NCBI RefSeq assembly: GCF_003018255.1
Contig: NZ_CP027440.1
Origin: Escherichia coli
GTDB lineage: Bacteria; Pseudomonadota; Gammaproteobacteria; Enterobacterales; Enterobacteriaceae
Length of the DNA: 64,000 bases
Direction: 5' to 3' (one strand)
Under the pieces are notes generated by a model that worked only from the letters and a program-made list of their open reading frames with translations, ran no database searches and was not told where the DNA came from. A program made the position numbers and the translations under genes. Shown piece after piece: positions 1,278 to 63,959 of this stretch. The first letter of the stretch is position 1. Each line of letters begins with the position of its first letter.

Positions 1278-1457
1278 ATGAAGCAGTTCGGGGAAATCAG
1301 TTGTCGTAATAATTAGCATGATTGGGGGCAATTCTCTGCAGCCCCCGTCACTGCTGGGGTTGAGTCATCTTGACGTCTGCTTTACGGGCGGTTAAGGTGC
1401 CTCTTGTGCGCCAGAAGTGCATATAAACGATAACATTGACCTGTAGACTTGATTATC

Positions 1458-2006
1458 ATGGACAAATTCGACGCTAATCGCCGCAAATTGCTGGCGCTTG
1501 GTGGCGTTGCACTCGGTGCCGCCATCCTGCCGACCCCTGCGTTTGCAACACTCTCTACCCCACGCCCGCGCATTTTGACACTCAATAATCTTCATACCGG
1601 AGAGTCAATCAAAGCGGAGTTTTTCGATGGCAGAGGCTATATTCAGGAAGAATTGGCAAAACTTAACCATTTTTTCCGCGATTACCGCGCGAACAAAATA
1701 AAGTCCATCGACCCAGGATTATTCGACCAGTTGTATCGCCTGCAAGGGTTGTTAGGTACCCGCAAACCGGTGCAACTCATTTCCGGTTATCGTTCCATTG
1801 ATACCAACAATGAACTACGCGCCCGCAGCCGTGGAGTAGCGAAGAAAAGCTATCACACGAAAGGGCAGGCGATGGATTTCCATATTGAAGGTATCGCGTT
1901 AAGCAATATTCGCAAAGCCGCGTTATCTATGCGCGCAGGTGGTGTAGGATATTACCCACGTAGTAACTTTGTGCATATTGATACCGGGCCAGCACGGCAC
2001 TGGTAG
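1458..2006 (+). CDS. mepK: peptidoglycan L,D-endopeptidase MepK (YcbK), Tat-exported
   Basis: ATG at 1458 (MDKFDANRRKLLALGG..., twin-arginine signal); ORF track 1449..2006; sequence recognised. Confidence 0.9.
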   Translation: MDKFDANRRKLLALGGVALGAAILPTPAFATLSTPRPRILTLNNLHTGESIKAEFFDGRGYIQEELAKLNHFFRDYRANKIKSIDPGLFDQLYRLQGLLGTRKPVQLISGYRSIDTNNELRARSRGVAKKSYHTKGQAMDFHIEGIALSNIRKAALSMRAGGVGYYPRSNFVHIDTGPARHW

Positions 2007-7364: not shown

Positions 7365-8567
7365 TTAACTGGCTTTTTTAATATGCGGAAGGTCGAACGC
7401 TTTGCGTAGCGCCCGAACAAACGCTTTATCGTGGCAGATAGTTTTGCCTGGGCTGTCAGAAAGTTTCGCCACTGGTTTACCGTTACACTCTACCAACTTA
7501 ATGACAATATTCAGGGGTTTTACCTGGGGGATATCGCAGGTCAGGCGAGTCCCAATACCAAAACTTAATTGCACGCGGGAAGAGAAGTGGCGGTATAGCT
7601 CAACCGCTTTGCGTAAATCCAGATTGTCAGAGAAAACCAGCGTTTTACTCTGTGGATCAATTCCCAGCTTTTCATAATGTGCAATGGCTTTTTCACCCCA
7701 TTCAACCGGGTCACCAGAGTCATGGCGCAGGCCCTGATAGCGACTGGCGAACTCGACACCGAAATCTCGCAGGAAAGCATCCATAGTGATGCAGTCGGTT
7801 AACGCAATGCCAAGTTGGTCGGGATACTCTTCCAGCCAGGCAGCAAGTGCAGCTCGCTGGCTGTTGGCTAGATCCGGGCTGATTTGCTGATGCGCCTGGA
7901 ACCATTCGTGTGCCTGTGTTCCCATCGGCGTGAGGGAAAGCCGACGCGCCAGATCGTAGTTGCTGGTGCCCACGAACCAGGATTCCTGTTGCAGACGTTT
8001 CACGATGGTTTCTTGTACTTCACGAGAAAAACGTCGGCGGGTGCCAAAATCCATCAGATGGAAGCGCGACATATCAAGACCGGCGGTTAATGCCGAGAAG
8101 TCGGCTAATTTGCTTTCCAGCGTGTCGAGGGCTTGCGCAACGTCGGCCTGCGGTGAGCGATAGCGATGTACCATTTCACTGATAACCGCCAGCAAAGGAA
8201 CTTCCCAGAGGATGACTTCACGCCACGGGCCGCTTAAACGAATATCCAGCTTGCCATTATCGTTGGACACGGTGACTTGTTCCGGGTTAAAGCGGAACTC
8301 GCGTAGCCAGTTAAGATAGTCGGCCTTAAAGAAAGGCAGGGCAGAGAGCCACTGATATTCATCATCCTGCAGGCGCAGGTACTGCATCGCCTGAACCTGT
8401 TCACGAATAGCATCGGCATAAATACCCAGCAGATCGTCACCTCGGCAACGAAACTCCGCCGCGACATGCACATCGTAATAGTGATGAAACACGGCTTGCT
8501 GCATATGCAACTTATAAGCATCTGTATCCAGCAACGAGTGCAGAACAGGAGAAGCGAATTGTGTCAT
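7365..8567 (-). CDS. pncB: nicotinate phosphoribosyltransferase
   Basis: ORF track 7365..8615; start at ATG giving [20 protein letters not shown]. Confidence 0.95.
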
Positions 8568-15319: not shown

Positions 15320-15887
15320 GGGCATTACCTCGCAGAGACAGAAGGTCAGGAACCTGAACATCGCGGCGGTGCAACGCCTGCCAGAAAGTTTCTAGCGCGG
15401 TATCAAGACGAGTTTGCAGATTTGGCGTGAACTGGGGTTTGTGTTGGTAATCAATTACTTGCGAGTCATCGGCAAACACGCCGTGCAGGATCTCCTGGGC
15501 TTTCAGCGTACTTAAAACTGGCTTAAGGGCATAATCGACCGCCAGCAGATGGGCCACGGTGCCGCCTGTCGCCAGCGGCAGCACCACTTTGCCTTGCAAC
15601 GCACGTTCTGGCAGCAGGTCGAGCAGGGTTTTCAGCGCGCCGGAATAGGCGGCTTTATACACAGGCGTGGCGACAATCAGCCCATCGGCCTGTTGCAGCT
15701 GTTCGGTGAAGGTCTTGAGTGCCGGACTATCGAAACGAGCATAAAGCAGATCTTCCGGGACGAAGTTTTGCAAATTCCAGTGATAAACCTCTACATCCAG
15801 GCCATTTAGTTTTTCCCGCGCATATTCCAGCAAGGAGCTGGAGCGAGAAGGAAAGCGAGGACTACCCGCCAGGGTGATGACACGCAT
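15312..15887 (-). CDS. ssuE: NADPH-dependent FMN reductase
   Basis: 191 aa; MRVITLAGSPRFPSRSS N-terminus. Confidence 0.95.
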   Translation of the reverse strand: MRVITLAGSPRFPSRSSSLLEYAREKLNGLDVEVYHWNLQNFVPEDLLYARFDSPALKTFTEQLQQADGLIVATPVYKAAYSGALKTLLDLLPERALQGKVVLPLATGGTVAHLLAVDYALKPVLSTLKAQEILHGVFADDSQVIDYQHKPQFTPNLQTRLDTALETFWQALHRRDVQVPDLLSLRGNAHA

Positions 15888-16123
15888 ACTCTCTCCTTAT
15901 AACCAATTGTTCTTGTTTTGTTAACATTGATAACAATTCGGTCAGTCTGACAGAGGGCGTCCGCGAGTCGAAATGATTTATCTGAGGAAGAAAAGCCAAA
16001 AAAAGCATAAAAAAAGCGCAATAAGAAAACGTTTGCTATTTATTGCCGCAGGTCAATTCCCTTTTGGTCCGAACTCGCACATAATACGCCCCCGGTTTGC
16101 ACACCGGGAATCCAGGAGAGTTC

Positions 16124-17134
16124 ATGTACTACCCCTTCGTTCGTAAAGCCCTTTTCCAGCTCGATCCAGAGCGCGCTCATGAGTTTACTTTTCAGCAATT
16201 ACGCCGTATTACCGGAACGCCGTTTGAAGCACTGGTGCGGCAGAAAGTGCCTGCGAAACCTGTTAACTGCATGGGCCTGACGTTTAAAAATCCGCTTGGT
16301 CTGGCAGCCGGTCTTGATAAAGACGGGGAGTGCATTGACGCGTTAGGCGCGATGGGATTTGGATCGATCGAGATCGGTACCGTCACGCCACGTCCCCAGC
16401 CAGGTAATGACAAGCCGCGTCTCTTTCGTCTGGTAGATGCCGAAGGTTTGATCAACCGTATGGGCTTTAATAATCTTGGCGTTGATAACCTCGTAGAGAA
16501 CGTAAAAAAAGCCCATTATGACGGCGTTCTGGGTATTAACATCGGCAAAAATAAAGATACGCCGGTGGAGCAGGGTAAAGATGACTATCTGATTTGTATG
16601 GAAAAAATCTATGCCTATGCGGGATATATCGCCATCAATATTTCATCGCCAAATACCCCAGGATTACGCACACTGCAATATGGCGAAGCGCTGGATGATC
16701 TCTTAACCGCGATTAAAAATAAGCAAAATGATTTGCAAGCGATGCACCATAAATATGTGCCGATCGCAGTGAAGATCGCGCCGGATCTTTCTGAAGAAGA
16801 ATTGATCCAGGTTGCCGATAGTTTAGTTCGCCATAATATTGATGGCGTGATTGCAACCAATACCACGCTCGATCGTTCTCTGGTTCAGGGAATGAAAAAT
16901 TGTGATCAAACCGGTGGCTTAAGTGGTCGTCCGCTTCAGTTAAAAAGCACAGAAATTATTCGCCGCTTGTCACAGGAATTAAACGGTCGCTTACCGATCA
17001 TCGGTGTTGGCGGCATTGATTCGGTTATCGCTGCGCGTGAAAAGATTGCTGCGGGGGCCTCACTGGTGCAAATTTATTCTGGTTTTATTTTTAAAGGTCC
17101 GCCGCTGATTAAAGAAATCGTTACCCATATCTAA
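16124..17134 (+). CDS. pyrD: dihydroorotate dehydrogenase (quinone)
   Basis: ORF track 16097..17134; start at ATG 16124 giving [21 protein letters not shown]. Confidence 0.95.
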
Positions 17135-30368: not shown

Positions 30369-31421
30369 TTAAGCCTGCGGCTGAGTTACAACGTCTTTGA
30401 TGCCTTTAACTTCGATCTCTACGCGACGATCCGGAGCCAGGCAATCGATCAGTGCAGCACGCTGTTTCACGTTGTCACAGGTGTTGCCAGTAACCGGGTT
30501 GGATTCGCCCATACCACGTGCGGAGATTTTGTCTGCCGGGATACCTTTAGAGATCAGGTAATCAACAACGGACTGAGCACGACGCTCGGACAGAGCCTGG
30601 TTATAAGCGTCAGAACCGATGCGGTCAGTGTAACCCAGAACAACTACGGAACCGTCTTTCGGATCCAGGTTGCTCAGCTGGCTGTACAGCTGATCCAGAG
30701 CAGCCTGACCTTCCGGTTTCAGGGTTGCTTTGTTGAAGGTGAACAGAACGTCAGACTTCAGAGTGAAGTGCTTGGTCTGTACTTCCGGTGCCGGAGCTGG
30801 AGCCGGAGCAACTACTGGAGCTGCTTCGCCCTGACCGAAACGGTAGGAAACACCCAGGCTCAGCATGCCGTTGTCCGGACGAGTGCCGATGGTGTGTGCA
30901 TCACCGATGTTGTTGGTCCACTGGTATTCCAGACGGGTAGCGATTTCAGGAGTGATCGCATACTCAACACCGCCAGCGAAGACCGGAGAAACGCCGGTGT
31001 CGTGGTCTTTAAAGGATGCGCCACCAGGTACGTTAGCCTTGGTGTCTGCACGCCATACCATACCACCCAGACGAGTGTAGATGTCCAGATCGTCAGTGAT
31101 TGGGTAACCCAGTTTAGCGGTCAGCTGAACGCCCTGAGCTTTGTATGCGCCGTTGATGTTGTCGCCTTTGTACGGCATACGACCTAACCAGTCGTAACCC
31201 ATTTCAAAGCCAACATACGGGTTAACCTGGTAACCACCAAAAGCACCTGCACCCAGTTGGTTTTCGTGGGTCGGACCATTGTTAGGAATAAAACCAGTGT
31301 CATGGTACTGGGACCAGCCCAGTTTAGCACCAGTGTACCAGGTGTTATCTTTCGGAGCGGCCTGCGCTACGGTAGCGAAACCAGCCAGTGCCACTGCAAT
31401 CGCGATAGCTGTCTTTTTCAT
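30369..31421 (-). CDS. ompA: outer membrane protein A (variant surface-loop allele)
   Basis: ORF track 30369..31508; start at ATG giving [21 protein letters not shown]; APAPAPAP hinge and OmpA-like C-terminal domain. Confidence 0.95.
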
Positions 31422-39312: not shown

Positions 39313-39768
39313 ATGAAAGAAACCGATATTGCAGGCATTTTAACGTCCACTCACACCATTGCGCTGGTGGGGGCAAGCGACAAACCCGATCGTCCCAGCT
39401 ATCGCGTGATGAAATATCTACTCGACCAGGGGTATCACGTCATTCCTGTTTCGCCAAAAGTTGCCGGCAAAACACTGCTGGGCCAGCAGGGGTATGGCAC
39501 GCTGGCAGACGTTCCGGAAAAAGTCGATATGGTCGATGTTTTCCGTAATTCAGAAGCGGCGTGGGGCGTGGCGCAGGAAGCTATCGCCATTGGTGCGAAA
39601 ACCCTCTGGATGCAACTGGGGGTGATTAATGAGCAAGCGGCAGTGCTGGCGCGTGATGCAGGGCTAAACGTGGTGATGGATCGCTGCCCGGCGATTGAGA
39701 TCCCTCGTCTGGGCCTGGCAAAAAAAAAAAATACCCGGAAGGCGAAAACCTTCCGGGTATGTTTATGA
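39313..39768 (+). CDS. yccU: CoA-binding domain protein YccU; C-terminal tail here reads through an A12 tract
   Basis: ORF track 39232..39768; start at ATG 39313 giving [20 protein letters not shown]; reading frame continues ...[19 protein letters not shown] through the terminator hairpin. Confidence 0.85.
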
Positions 39769-43083: not shown

Positions 43084-43509
43084 GGAATGACGCGCACTAT
43101 AAACATCCCGATGCAGCGTGTAAACCCCTAATTTGTTTGTTTGCCTGAAAAACAGCCAAAAGTGCATTGATAGCGTGAAATAACAGCAGATTGATCATTT
43201 CATCACCATGAATTCCTTCTCTTTTACTCGTTTAGCAATCGGCTAAACATCCCCACCGCCCGGTAAAAAGAAAAATAGGTCCATTTTTATCGCTAAAAGA
43301 TAAATCCACACAGTTTGTATTGTTTTGTGCAAAAGTTTCACTACGCTTTATTAACAATACTTTCTGGCGACGTGCGCCAGTGCAGAAGGATGAGCTTTCG
43401 TTTTCAGCATCTCACGTGAAGCGATGGTTTGCCTTGCTACAGGGACGTCGCTTGCCGACCATAAGCGCCCGGTGTCCTGCCGGTGTCGCAAGGAGAAGAG
43501 ACGTGCGAT

Positions 43510-44628
43510 ATGAATAACGAGGAAACATTTTACCAGGCCATGCGGCGTCAGGGCGTTACCCGACGCAGCTTTCTCAAATATTGCAGTCTGGCTGCCACGT
43601 CGCTGGGATTAGGCGCGGGGATGGCACCAAAGATTGCCTGGGCGCTGGAGAACAAACCGCGCATTCCGGTGGTATGGATCCACGGTCTGGAATGCACCTG
43701 CTGTACCGAATCTTTTATCCGCTCCGCTCACCCGCTGGCAAAGGACGTCATCCTTTCCCTGATTTCCCTCGATTACGACGATACTTTGATGGCTGCCGCC
43801 GGAACCCAGGCGGAAGAAGTCTTTGAAGACATCATCACGCAATACAATGGCAAATATATCCTCGCAGTAGAAGGTAATCCGCCGCTGGGCGAGCAGGGGA
43901 TGTTCTGTATCAGCAGCGGTCGACCGTTTATTGAGAAACTCAAACGTGCCGCTGCCGGAGCCAGTGCGATTATCGCCTGGGGAACCTGCGCGTCCTGGGG
44001 CTGCGTGCAGGCCGCGCGACCCAATCCGACGCAGGCAACGCCTATCGACAAAGTCATCACCGACAAACCTATTATCAAAGTACCTGGCTGCCCGCCGATC
44101 CCGGATGTGATGAGCGCCATCATTACTTACATGGTGACCTTTGATCGCTTGCCAGATGTCGACAGAATGGGCCGTCCGTTGATGTTCTATGGTCAGCGTA
44201 TCCACGATAAATGCTATCGCCGTGCTCACTTCGACGCCGGAGAGTTCGTCCAGAGTTGGGATGATGACGCTGCCCGCAAAGGTTACTGCCTGTACAAAAT
44301 GGGCTGCAAAGGGCCTACCACCTATAACGCCTGTTCCTCCACACGCTGGAACGATGGCGTTTCCTTCCCGATCCAGTCAGGTCACGGCTGCCTGGGTTGT
44401 GCGGAAAATGGTTTCTGGGATCGCGGTTCGTTCTACAGCCGCGTGGTCGATATTCCACAAATGGGTACCCATTCCACCGCCGACACCGTCGGTTTAACCG
44501 CGCTTGGCGTGGTGGCAGCGGCTGTTGGTGTGCACGCAGTCGCCAGCGCCGTTGACCAGCGCAGGCGTCATAACCAGCAACCTACAGAAACCGAACATCA
44601 GCCAGGCAATGAGGATAAACAGGCATGA
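43510..44628 (+). CDS. hyaA: [NiFe] hydrogenase 1 small subunit, Tat signal
   Basis: ORF track 43483..44628; start at ATG 43510 giving [29 protein letters not shown] (twin-arginine motif). Confidence 0.95.
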
Positions 44629-46418
44629 GCACTCAGTACGAAACTCAGGGATACACCATCAACAATGCCGGACGCCGCCTGGTGGTCGACCCGATTACGC
44701 GCATTGAAGGCCACATGCGCTGCGAAGTGAATATTAACGATCAGAATGTGATCACCAATGCCGTCTCCTGCGGCACCATGTTTCGCGGGCTGGAGATCAT
44801 CCTGCAAGGGCGCGACCCGCGCGATGCGTGGGCGTTCGTTGAACGTATCTGCGGCGTCTGTACTGGCGTACACGCTCTGGCTTCGGTTTACGCCATCGAA
44901 GATGCCATCGGTATTAAAGTGCCGGACAACGCCAATATCATCCGCAACATTATGCTGGCAACGCTCTGGTGCCACGATCATCTGGTGCACTTCTATCAGC
45001 TTGCCGGGATGGACTGGATCGATGTGTTAGATGCGCTGAAAGCCGACCCGCGGAAAACCTCCGAACTGGCGCAAAGCCTCTCCTCATGGCCGAAATCATC
45101 CCCTGGCTATTTCTTCGACGTACAAAACCGCCTGAAGAAATTCGTTGAAGGCGGGCAGTTGGGGATCTTCCGCAATGGCTACTGGGGGCACCCGCAGTAC
45201 AAACTGCCGCCAGAAGCCAACCTGATGGGCTTTGCCCACTATCTCGAAGCTCTCGATTTCCAGCGTGAAATTGTCAAAATCCACGCGGTCTTTGGTGGTA
45301 AAAACCCGCATCCAAACTGGATTGTCGGCGGGATGCCTTGCGCCATTAACATTGACGAAAGCGGCGCAGTCGGGGCGGTCAATATGGAACGCCTGAACCT
45401 GGTGCAGTCGATCATTACCCGTACGGCGGATTTCATTAACAACGTGATGATCCCCGACGCCTTAGCCATCGGCCAGTTCAACAAACCGTGGAGCGAAATC
45501 GGCACGGGTCTTTCTGATAAATGTGTCCTCAGCTACGGCGCATTCCCGGATATTGCCAACGACTTTAGTGAGAAAAGTCTGCTGATGCCTGGCGGCGCGG
45601 TGATTAACGGCGACTTCAACAATGTGCTGCCAGTGGATTTGGTTGATCCGCAGCAGGTGCAGGAGTTTGTCGATCACGCCTGGTATCGTTATCCCAACGA
45701 TCAGGTCGGGCGTCATCCGTTCGATGGCATCACCGACCCGTGGTACAACCCCGGCGATGTCAAAGGCAGCGATACCAACATTCAGCAGCTGAATGAACAG
45801 GAACGCTACTCGTGGATCAAAGCGCCACGCTGGCGCGGTAATGCGATGGAAGTGGGGCCGCTGGCACGCACGTTAATCGCTTATCACAAAGGCGATGCGG
45901 CGACCGTTGAGTCGGTCGATCGCATGATGTCGGCGTTGAACCTGCCGCTTTCCGGCATCCAGTCAACGTTAGGCCGCATTTTGTGTCGCGCGCACGAAGC
46001 GCAGTGGGCCGCAGGCAAGTTACAATATTTCTTCGACAAGCTGATGACCAATCTCAAAAACGGCAATCTCGCCACCGCCTCCACTGAGAAGTGGGAACCA
46101 GCAACCTGGCCGACAGAGTGCCGTGGTGTCGGCTTTACCGAAGCGCCGCGCGGAGCGTTAGGCCACTGGGCCGCCATTCGCGATGGCAAGATTGATCTCT
46201 ACCAGTGCGTGGTGCCGACCACCTGGAACGCCAGCCCGCGCGATCCTAAAGGGCAAATTGGCGCTTATGAAGCGGCGCTGATGAACACCAAAATGGCGAT
46301 CCCCGAGCAACCGCTGGAGATCCTGCGTACTCTGCACAGCTTTGACCCGTGCCTCGCCTGTTCAACACACGTGCTGGGCGACGACGGTAGCGAGCTGATC
46401 TCCGTGCAGGTGCGTTAA
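44625..46418 (+). CDS. hyaB: [NiFe] hydrogenase 1 large subunit
   Basis: 597 aa; N-terminal RIEGH and C-terminal DPCLACSTH nickel-binding motifs. Confidence 0.96.
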
Positions 46419-47144: not shown

Positions 47145-47728
47145 GCGAGCAACGCGTGGTGGTAATGGGGCTGGGCAACCTGCTGTGGGCCGATGAAGGC
47201 TTCGGCGTGCGGGTGGCGGAACGGCTGTATGCCCATTACCACTGGCCCGAGGATGTGGAGATTGTCGATGGCGGTACTCAGGGACTGAACTTGCTGGGGT
47301 ATGTCGAAAGCGCCAGTCACTTGTTGATCCTCGATGCCATTGATTACGGGCTGGAACCCGGAACGCTGCGAACATATGCCGGAGAACGCATTCCGGCTTA
47401 TCTCAGCGCGAAGAAAATGAGTCTGCACCAGAACAGCTTCTCCGAAGTGCTGGCGCTGGCAGATATCCGCGGACATCTGCCAGCACATATTGCCCTCGTC
47501 GGTCTGCAACCCGCAATGCTCGACGACTACGGCGGTAGCCTGAGCGAACTGGCGCGGGAGCAACTGCCCGCTGCGGAACAGGCGGCGCTGGCGCAGCTGG
47601 CTGTGTGGGGAATTGTGCCGCAACCGGCTAATGAATCGCGCTGTCTCAATTATGACTGTCTGTCGATGGAAAATTACGAAGGCGTTCGCTTGCGCCAGTA
47701 CCGGATGACGCTGGAGGAGCAGGGATGA
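47141..47728 (+). CDS. hyaD: hydrogenase 1 maturation endopeptidase
   Basis: 195 aa; [16 protein letters not shown] motif. Confidence 0.93.
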
Positions 47729-48123
47729 GCAACGACACGCCATTTGATGCGTTGTGGCAACGAATGCTGGCGCGCGGCTGGACGCCGGTCAGTGAATCCC
47801 GCCTTGAGGACTGGCTCACGCAAGCGCCAGACGGCGTGGTGTTATTAAGCAGTGACCCGAAACGCACGCCAGAGGTCAGCGATAATCCGGTAATGATTGG
47901 CGAATTATTGCGCGAGTTTCCAGACTTTACATGGCAGGTAGCGATTGCTGACCTTGAGCAGAGCGAAGCCATCGGCGATCGCTTTGGCGTCTTTCGCTTT
48001 CCCGCCACATTAGTATTTACCGGCGGAAACTATCGCGGCGTGCTGAATGGTATTCACCCGTGGGCGGAACTGATAAACCTGATGCGCGGGCTTGTCGAAC
48101 CGCAGCAGGAGCGTGCCTCATGA
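47725..48123 (+). CDS. hyaE: hydrogenase 1 operon protein HyaE (thioredoxin-like chaperone)
   Basis: 132 aa; 4-nt overlaps with hyaD and hyaF. Confidence 0.9.
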
Positions 48124-62885: not shown

Positions 62886-63959
62886 TTAGTGGCCAATCAT
62901 TGGCGCTTGTGGAATTAAGCGTCGGTACAATTCCTCCGGCACCGGGCTTTGCCATACTCCCGCATACATTGCGTAACCAATCACCGCAAACATAATCCCC
63001 AGAATCAGTAGCGTCATTAACCAGCCAGACAACGCAAAGGCTTTTTTATTTGCCGCAGGTTTTTGCAGTGAAAAGGTCAATGTTGAGGCTACCGGACATG
63101 ACTCTACGCAAGTCATACAGCCGGTACATTCCACTGTTCGTACCTGAATTAATTTATCGACCGGGATCCGTGATGGGCAATTTTTTGCGCATTTGCCACA
63201 GTCGATACAACTTTCGGCATTGCGACGAATCTTAAACGGCGATAATAGCGAAACCACGCCCATCAGCGCGCCATATGGGCAAAGATAACGACACCAGGCA
63301 TGGCGAATAAACAGGCTGGCAATCAGCAAAACGATCATGCTGATTAATGTCGCGGTCCCCATATGACGAAAGAAATTGAGCATTTTAACGTCCATCACCA
63401 CGCTGTAGGGCGACAACATAAAATAGTGAATCGCCTGAGCGGGCATCAATAACGCAATATAGAGAAAAAAACTCAACAGCAAATACTTCACGCCGCGCAG
63501 AGGAGTATCCAGCCAGCGGGGAAGGACAAATTGCCGACCAAACAGTTTGTTACCGAGATCGCCGATTAATTCAGAAAGCGTACCAACCGGGCATAACCAT
63601 GAACAAAAGGCCTTTTTTAATAATAGACTGATGACGATAAAAGCGACCAATAACAGCATCGCGGCGGCGTGGACGGACGGTAACTGGCCTGTTGCAAGGC
63701 TATATTTCAGATTCATCAGACCGGCAATCGGTAGCCAGCCTTCGATACCTCCCGGTCTGGTGACAAATGTCGTACTACCTGCCGTTTCGTAATAGCGCAC
63801 CCAATACCAGAACGTGATGGCAATATAAATATTCATTGCCAACAGTAATAATTGCGTCGCTTTACGCCAGGTCGTGGCATTGCGCCAGTCATTCCACGGT
63901 AATTTGCCGCCCGTCGTGCTTGGCCGCCGCTGCCAGCGGGTTCTTCTTTTCTCTGTCAT
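62886..63959 (-). CDS. yccM: membrane-bound 4Fe-4S ferredoxin-type protein YccM (NapH/MauN-like)
   Basis: 357 aa; polytopic with CxxCxxC clusters (CIDCGKCAKNCP, CTGCMTCVESCP). Confidence 0.9.
   Translation of the reverse strand: MTEKRRTRWQRRPSTTGGKLPWNDWRNATTWRKATQLLLLAMNIYIAITFWYWVRYYETAGSTTFVTRPGGIEGWLPIAGLMNLKYSLATGQLPSVHAAAMLLLVAFIVISLLLKKAFCSWLCPVGTLSELIGDLGNKLFGRQFVLPRWLDTPLRGVKYLLLSFFLYIALLMPAQAIHYFMLSPYSVVMDVKMLNFFRHMGTATLISMIVLLIASLFIRHAWCRYLCPYGALMGVVSLLSPFKIRRNAESCIDCGKCAKNCPSRIPVDKLIQVRTVECTGCMTCVESCPVASTLTFSLQKPAANKKAFALSGWLMTLLILGIMFAVIGYAMYAGVWQSPVPEELYRRLIPQAPMIGH

Follow-up and report, generated by a model that had tools for sequence, protein, structure and literature searches.

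[quoted passage not shown] The analysis covered a 64-kb stretch of E. coli chromosome, called the window here, which runs from ldtD to yccM. Both are extracytoplasmic metalloproteins with a tripartite twin-arginine architecture at their true N-termini, and it is highly probable that both arginine pairs belong to cleavable N-terminal signal peptides for the Tat pathway, of which MepK and HyaA are well-known substrates in E. coli. The sequences, the true gene starts, the families, the signal architecture and the conservation of the arginine pair were computed here, and the evidence on in vivo Tat dependence, on hitchhiking and on the failed Sec rerouting of MepK was taken from papers. Both signals are already known and stand in published Tat-substrate lists, i.e., their identification brings nothing new.

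Of 5426 complete E. coli genomes, 5425 contain bases 1300–2100 of the window, several of them with 100% identity, and the whole 64 kb aligned with strain 20Ec-P-124 as a single collinear block of 98.8% identity. The RefSeq gene order in 20Ec-P-124 is ldtD, mepK, gloC, aspC, ompF ... ompA ... serT, hyaABCDEF, appCBA, etk, the gfc genes and yccM. Elsewhere in the window (15600–16400), ssuE adjoins pyrD, a junction that was contiguous in only 1352 of the 5425 complete E. coli genomes, the query splitting into two places in the remainder. In K-12, this spot is presumably occupied by the elfADCG-ycbUVF fimbrial operon. The reading frame of yccU (39313–39768, + strand) has 151 codons instead of 137, with a lysine codon in place of the usual stop after ...RLGLAK and 14 residues added, and the ompA gene (30369–31421, − strand) encodes a protein of 350 residues vs 346 in the closest strain compared, which was taken to be an allelic length difference.

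The two genes and their signal peptides

The open reading frame at 1449–2006 (+ strand) has an ATG at 1458, from which the protein begins MDKFDANRRKLLALGGVALGAAILPTPAFATLST..., and the RefSeq mepK coding sequence of a strain that is 100% identical maps exactly to 1458–2006. MepK scored 274.9 bits against the NCBIfam equivalog NF053624 (cut-off 185), in a match that starts exactly at R8, and was assigned by Pfam to Peptidase_M15_2/DUF882 (PF05951) with E=2.8e-61. Residues H133, D140 and H173 are invariant among 107 family sequences and, by analogy with the M15 family, would be the zinc ligands. A search by sequence for a solved structure of MepK found none, the sole match being a spurious one to a leucine-rich repeat. 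Directly upstream of mepK, across a gap of 180 bases and on the same strand (1–2006, +, for the pair), lies ldtD (ycbB), whose product is an L,D-transpeptidase that makes 3-3 cross-links, next to a gene whose product is an endopeptidase that cuts them; this pairing is already known. The features of mepK are as follows:

1458..2006, + strand: mepK (ycbK) coding sequence, peptidoglycan L,D-endopeptidase, 182 residues (open reading frame, RefSeq mapping, NF053624, Pfam)
1458..1547, + strand: twin-arginine signal peptide MDKFDANRRKLLALGGVALGAAILPTPAFA, residues 1–30, predicted cleavage between AFA and TL (translation, published string)
1479..1484, + strand: twin arginines R8 R9, inside ANRRKLL (1473–1493)
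1488..1529, + strand: h-region LLALGGVALGAAIL
1530..1547, + strand: c-region PTPAFA, with an A-x-A site and without a basic residue

The n-region reads MDKFDANRRK, and cleavage presumably occurs after AFA30, from which the mature protein would start with TLSTPRPRIL, ten residues with a net charge of +2. In a TatP 1.0 listing, the Tat signal of YcbK is the same 30-residue string as that of MepK here (PMC7549933), and the Salmonella construct MepK31-183 places the signal boundary at the same point (PMC8262268).

For hyaA, the reading frame at 43483–44628 has an ATG at 43510, and the RefSeq coding sequence of 1119 bases corresponds to 43510–44628. The protein scored 675 bits against TIGR00391 (cut-off 179.5) and contains the Pfam domains Oxidored_q6 and NiFe_hyd_SSU_C; in the printed alignment, its residues 46–372 agree with the PDB chain 6fpi_S at every position. 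Downstream of hyaA, the window contains hyaB, hyaD, hyaE and hyaF. The features of this part of the window are as follows:

43510..44628, + strand: hyaA coding sequence, hydrogenase-1 small (iron-sulfur) subunit, 372 residues (open reading frame, RefSeq length, TIGR00391, PDB)
43510..43644, + strand: HyaA twin-arginine signal peptide, residues 1–45, cleavage between AWA and LE (TIGR01409, PDB chain starts)
43543..43548, + strand: second arginine pair R12 R13 (MRRQGV), in a long n-region
43558..43578, + strand: Tat motif T17-R-R-S-F-L-K23, 7/7 consensus positions
43579..43644, + strand: h-region (14 residues) and c-region MAPKIAWA with K41
44491..44553, + strand: C-terminal transmembrane tail anchor of HyaA, 21 residues, Tat-integrated
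44625..46418, + strand: hyaB, [NiFe] large subunit, without a signal peptide (Pfam NiFeSe_Hases, E=1.8e-222)
47725..48123, + strand: hyaE, operon-encoded accessory protein (Pfam HyaE, PF07449, E=6.1e-46)

The Tat consensus is S/T-R-R-x-F-L-K (PMC7317946), which HyaA matches throughout. Residues 16–45 also match the curated Tat profile TIGR01409, the score being 26.8 bits with the complete protein as query and 31.8 bits with the peptide (cut-off 16.7), and the score against the Pfam profile PF10518 was 12.5 bits, under the cut-off of 22.7. [quoted passage not shown] Of the small chains deposited in the PDB for E. coli hydrogenase-1, most start at L46, right after AWA, and two at 49; these chain starts, from which the mature N-terminus was taken, are the depositors’ sequences and not a new measurement.

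The protein strings on which the original prediction was built agree with the translations of 1458–1559 for MepK and of 43510–43639 for HyaA, and both signals were put in the right place, although the range given for MepK ran 13 bases into the mature protein and that for HyaA ended 4 bases before the cleavage site.

Tat or Sec for MepK

The MepK signal is a real twin-arginine signal, which is near-consensus only. Residues 8–12, RRKLL, fit the TatP pattern RR.[FGAVML][LITMVF], but ANRRKLLA falls short of the full consensus, matching it only at the two arginines and at the leucine that follows the F position, with N for S/T at position −1, L for F and A for K. No match of MepK to TIGR01409 or to the Pfam profile TAT_signal (PF10518) was obtained even at E values up to 10. 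The maximum 10-residue Kyte–Doolittle mean of the h-region, 2.18, is at the low end of the range of the Sec signals in the window (2.04–3.08); the signal has no K or R in PTPAFA. Its three glycines and the positive charge of the early mature region (+2) are, in turn, features that speak for Tat. The term “canonical” can therefore be kept for HyaA, with its perfect motif and its passing TIGR01409 score, and is too strong for MepK, because of the weak motif, the lack of a profile match, the hydrophobicity within the Sec range and the lack of a basic residue in the c-region.

With these Sec-like features, Sec export of MepK had to be taken seriously as an alternative and put to the test. According to this alternative, the MepK signal would in practice direct export by Sec, or promiscuously by both Sec and Tat, and its arginine pair would do nothing but make the n-region positive. 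In addition to the hydrophobicity, the c-region and the silent profiles, it can draw on the observation that many E. coli Tat signals use Sec when combined with a suitable reporter (PMC7317946), and on the long relatives of MepK with the DUF882 domain, most of which have signals of the Sec type (see below). The silence of TIGR01409 carries little weight, because this profile detected only 8 of 107 relatives in the MepK family, mostly with an obvious RR, and the profile failure was rejected as evidence against Tat. It follows for Tat-substrate lists that HMM hits alone are unreliable, as a Sec-like signal with a weak consensus such as that of MepK is missed by the curated profiles.

The conservation of the arginine pair was followed in a set of homologues. 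An initial search had returned only Enterobacterales with at least 76% identity, which were too close to inform, and it was replaced by a search of 50%-identity cluster representatives that yielded 150 relatives, mostly 41–56% identical to MepK. Of the 95 single-domain relatives whose N-terminus is complete, 92 have RR before the hydrophobic core. Two of the remaining three show KR, a type of variant that occurs naturally, as in TtrB (PMC1182353), and the third, a protein of 168 residues with neither RR nor KR, may be a truncated gene call. When the RR-bearing representatives were aligned on the pair (a first-pass subset of 104), positions −1, +2 and +5 were seen to vary widely, and the consensus of the MepK family is RRx[F/L]L. 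In the n-regions of Sec signals, K and R have been reported to be mechanistically equivalent (PMC7317946), and a merely basic n-region would swap them freely; in contrast, it is RR specifically that has been kept in this family, and not just positive charge, as Tat targeting predicts.

The charge behind the cleavage site also speaks against the Sec alternative. Over the first ten residues of the mature protein, the net charge is +2 in MepK and +1 in HyaA, vs 0 to −2 in eight Sec substrates of the window, with the Sec cleavage sites assigned for this comparison by the small-x-small rule. A positive early mature region reportedly blocks the Sec routing of Tat signals, a finding attributed to Tullman-Ercek in 2007, and the +2 of MepK may help to keep this protein off the Sec pathway.

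The original prediction had named a Sec assignment by the predictors as the result that would count against it, and the published calls were in fact Tat, by TatP 1.0 for both proteins and by SignalP for YcbK. In an ExPEC genome, TatP 1.0 listed 25 Tat substrates, HyaA and YcbK included, with signal strings identical to those of the window (PMC7549933), and the YcbK of EHEC was classed as “SPI-Tat” by SignalP (PMC12962677). HyaA and MepK both appear, moreover, in the tables of Salmonella and E. coli Tat substrates (PMC3027627, PMC8262268). The experiments that bear most directly on MepK were performed in Salmonella, where AmiA, AmiC and SufI complemented a tatABC deletion when provided with the OmpA signal, whereas OmpA-signal-MepK31-183 failed to do so, a failure that the authors ascribed to the zinc cofactor (PMC8262268). 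Loss of mepK added to the tat phenotype, and on ampicillin, the amiA amiC sufI mepK quadruple mutant was statistically the same as the tatABC deletion (PMC8262268). Given the kept arginine pair, the mature charge, the published calls and the failure of the Sec version, Sec export of MepK, alone or alongside Tat, is improbable.

There has been one dissenting report: in 2014, the Klebsiella pneumoniae orthologue of YcbK, KPN_00953, was described as having neither a Tat motif nor a signal peptide (PMC3927764). This claim conflicts with the RR signal that is kept in close homologues (Enterobacter, Cronobacter and a Klebsiella sp. entry), and a mis-called start codon is suspected, which may account for the discrepancy.

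The long DUF882 relatives, i.e., proteins of more than 270 residues with an N-terminal DUF882 domain, gave a different picture. A hydrophobic signal of the Sec type without a basic pair was found in 18 of 24 (those listed as Sec-type being 373–730 residues long) and RR in 5 of 24, so the DUF882 fold is not tied to Tat everywhere. The long relatives include the representatives P0148, P0158, P0165, P0179, P0192 and P0211. It is conceivable, though on balance rather unlikely, that this split by architecture is real and does not come from taxonomy or gene calling, and that the need of MepK for Tat is set by the short form of the protein and not by its zinc-binding fold. If so, a trait of the short form would be behind the Tat requirement, e.g., fast cytoplasmic folding or metal selection, and MepK would represent a natural borderline signal that is mainly kept off Sec by its positive early mature region.

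The arginine pairs of HyaA and the frequency of chance matches

HyaA has two arginine pairs, and the pair that is read by the translocase might be R12R13 in MRRQGV instead of R18R19, since RRQGV also fits the TatP pattern. The alignment with TIGR01409, however, begins at residue 16, and the motif directly before the h-region, TRRSFLK, follows the consensus perfectly, whereas R12R13 lies 11 residues ahead of this region. To judge from this arrangement, R18R19 is probably the working pair and R12R13 is probably not the targeting pair; recognition of R12R13 in its stead would be very improbable.

The frequency of such motifs was assessed with the default pattern of TatP, RR.[FGAVML][LITMVF] (PMC1182353), to which were added the requirements of a start codon upstream and of at least 13 consecutive uncharged residues after the pattern. 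In the 226 open reading frames of at least 80 residues, with 1225 possible starts, three sites passed, namely MepK, HyaA and an out-of-frame reading frame in pncB, and 40 dinucleotide shuffles of the window yielded a mean of 1.48 sites. The rarity of the motif was therefore rejected as an argument, the pattern alone not being rare. The picture was different at the annotated starts of the 58 genes, where the TatP pattern occurs in MepK, HyaA and HyaB only and, combined with a hydrophobic core, only in MepK and HyaA, i.e., two were seen vs approximately 0.07 expected from the shuffle rate (rough Poisson P ~0.002). It is the placement at annotated starts, and not the motif, that constitutes the real signal. 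That the motifs of MepK and HyaA are chance matches without a targeting role, for which one could cite the roughly 1.5 sites per shuffled window, the match inside pncB and the fit of HyaB to the bare pattern, has practically no probability left. Family conservation, with signal regions that are covered by the profiles TIGR00391 and NF053624, effectively refutes this reading, as does the N-terminus that mature HyaA has in solved structures, and both motifs stand at the RefSeq starts of proteins whose known place of action is outside the cytoplasm.

The reading frame inside pncB (8237–8521, − strand) encodes 95 residues from a start at 8521, with RRSFV and a stretch without charges; its frame is not that of pncB, and it exemplifies a false positive of a Tat-like rule. 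Another arginine-rich N-terminus in the window is that of YccM (~62886–63959, − strand), MTEKRRTRWQRRPSTTGGKLPWNDW..., which has two arginine pairs ~25 residues before the first hydrophobic segment, the TatP pattern fitting neither. YccM is annotated as a 4Fe-4S binding protein, and its membrane insertion route might be worth attention.

The N-terminus of HyaB (44625–44700, + strand) fits the TatP pattern without a hydrophobic core (maximum 0.74), and because this core is lacking, it is not a signal, consistent with an export as a hitchhiker. HyaB has been described to cross the membrane with HyaA in exactly this manner, HyaA being a Tat-dependent C-tail protein (PMC10924467). The accessory protein HyaE reportedly binds the signal of the HyaA precursor (attributed to Dubini and Sargent, 2003); the literature search found no supporting text for HyaE binding of the HyaA signal.

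Export of the two proteins and comparison with known systems

In the proposed mechanism, HyaA would assemble its iron-sulfur clusters in the cytoplasm and there bind HyaB, the nickel-iron subunit, and the Tat translocase would recognise TRRSFLK. The folded heterodimer would then cross the inner membrane, signal peptidase I would cut HyaA after AWA45, and the C-terminal helix of HyaA would anchor the enzyme on the periplasmic face. MepK, a zinc L,D-endopeptidase of the M15 type with the 3-3 cross-links of peptidoglycan as its substrate, would be targeted in the same way, with a shorter signal and the weaker motif ANRRKLL. The notion in the original prediction that these signals mark folded or cofactor-containing cargo fits HyaA, an iron-sulfur small subunit that carries HyaB (PMC10924467), and MepK, an M15-type zinc peptidase whose Sec version fails in the Salmonella tatABC deletion (PMC8262268). 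The Tat signals explain the cytoplasmic assembly of hydrogenase-1 before export, and MepK, as one of four Tat substrates behind antibiotic sensitivity, helps to explain the cell-wall defects of tat mutants.

The Sec signals of the window with which the two were compared are those of OmpF, OmpA, SsuA, AppA, CsgI and GfcA/C/D. They resemble MepK and HyaA in their N-terminal position and in being cleavable, and likewise have positive charge in the n-region, followed by a hydrophobic core and a small-x-small site. They differ in being 20–22 residues long, with K or KK instead of RR and with 0–1 glycine, and in being more hydrophobic (2.04–3.08) and followed by a neutral or acidic early mature region.

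Among the known Tat signals, that of HyaA in the window is the signal of the hydrogenase-1 small subunit, a type also found in HybO of hydrogenase-2; it shows no material difference from the known HyaA, the signal string being as tabulated, and the 17 residues before the motif, with the second RR pair, are a normal feature of HyaA. Likewise, the 30-residue signal of MepK is identical to the YcbK entry in PMC7549933, and MepK shows no difference from the known protein (YcbK of E. coli and Salmonella). SufI, TorA, AmiA and AmiC share with MepK and HyaA the n/h/c layout, the RR at the n/h boundary, the A-x-A site and the glycine-rich h-regions. MepK is grouped with AmiA, AmiC and SufI as the set that accounts for the cell-envelope phenotype of tat mutants, and within this set, it differs in that the Sec-signal versions of the other three complement the tatABC deletion of Salmonella, unlike its own.
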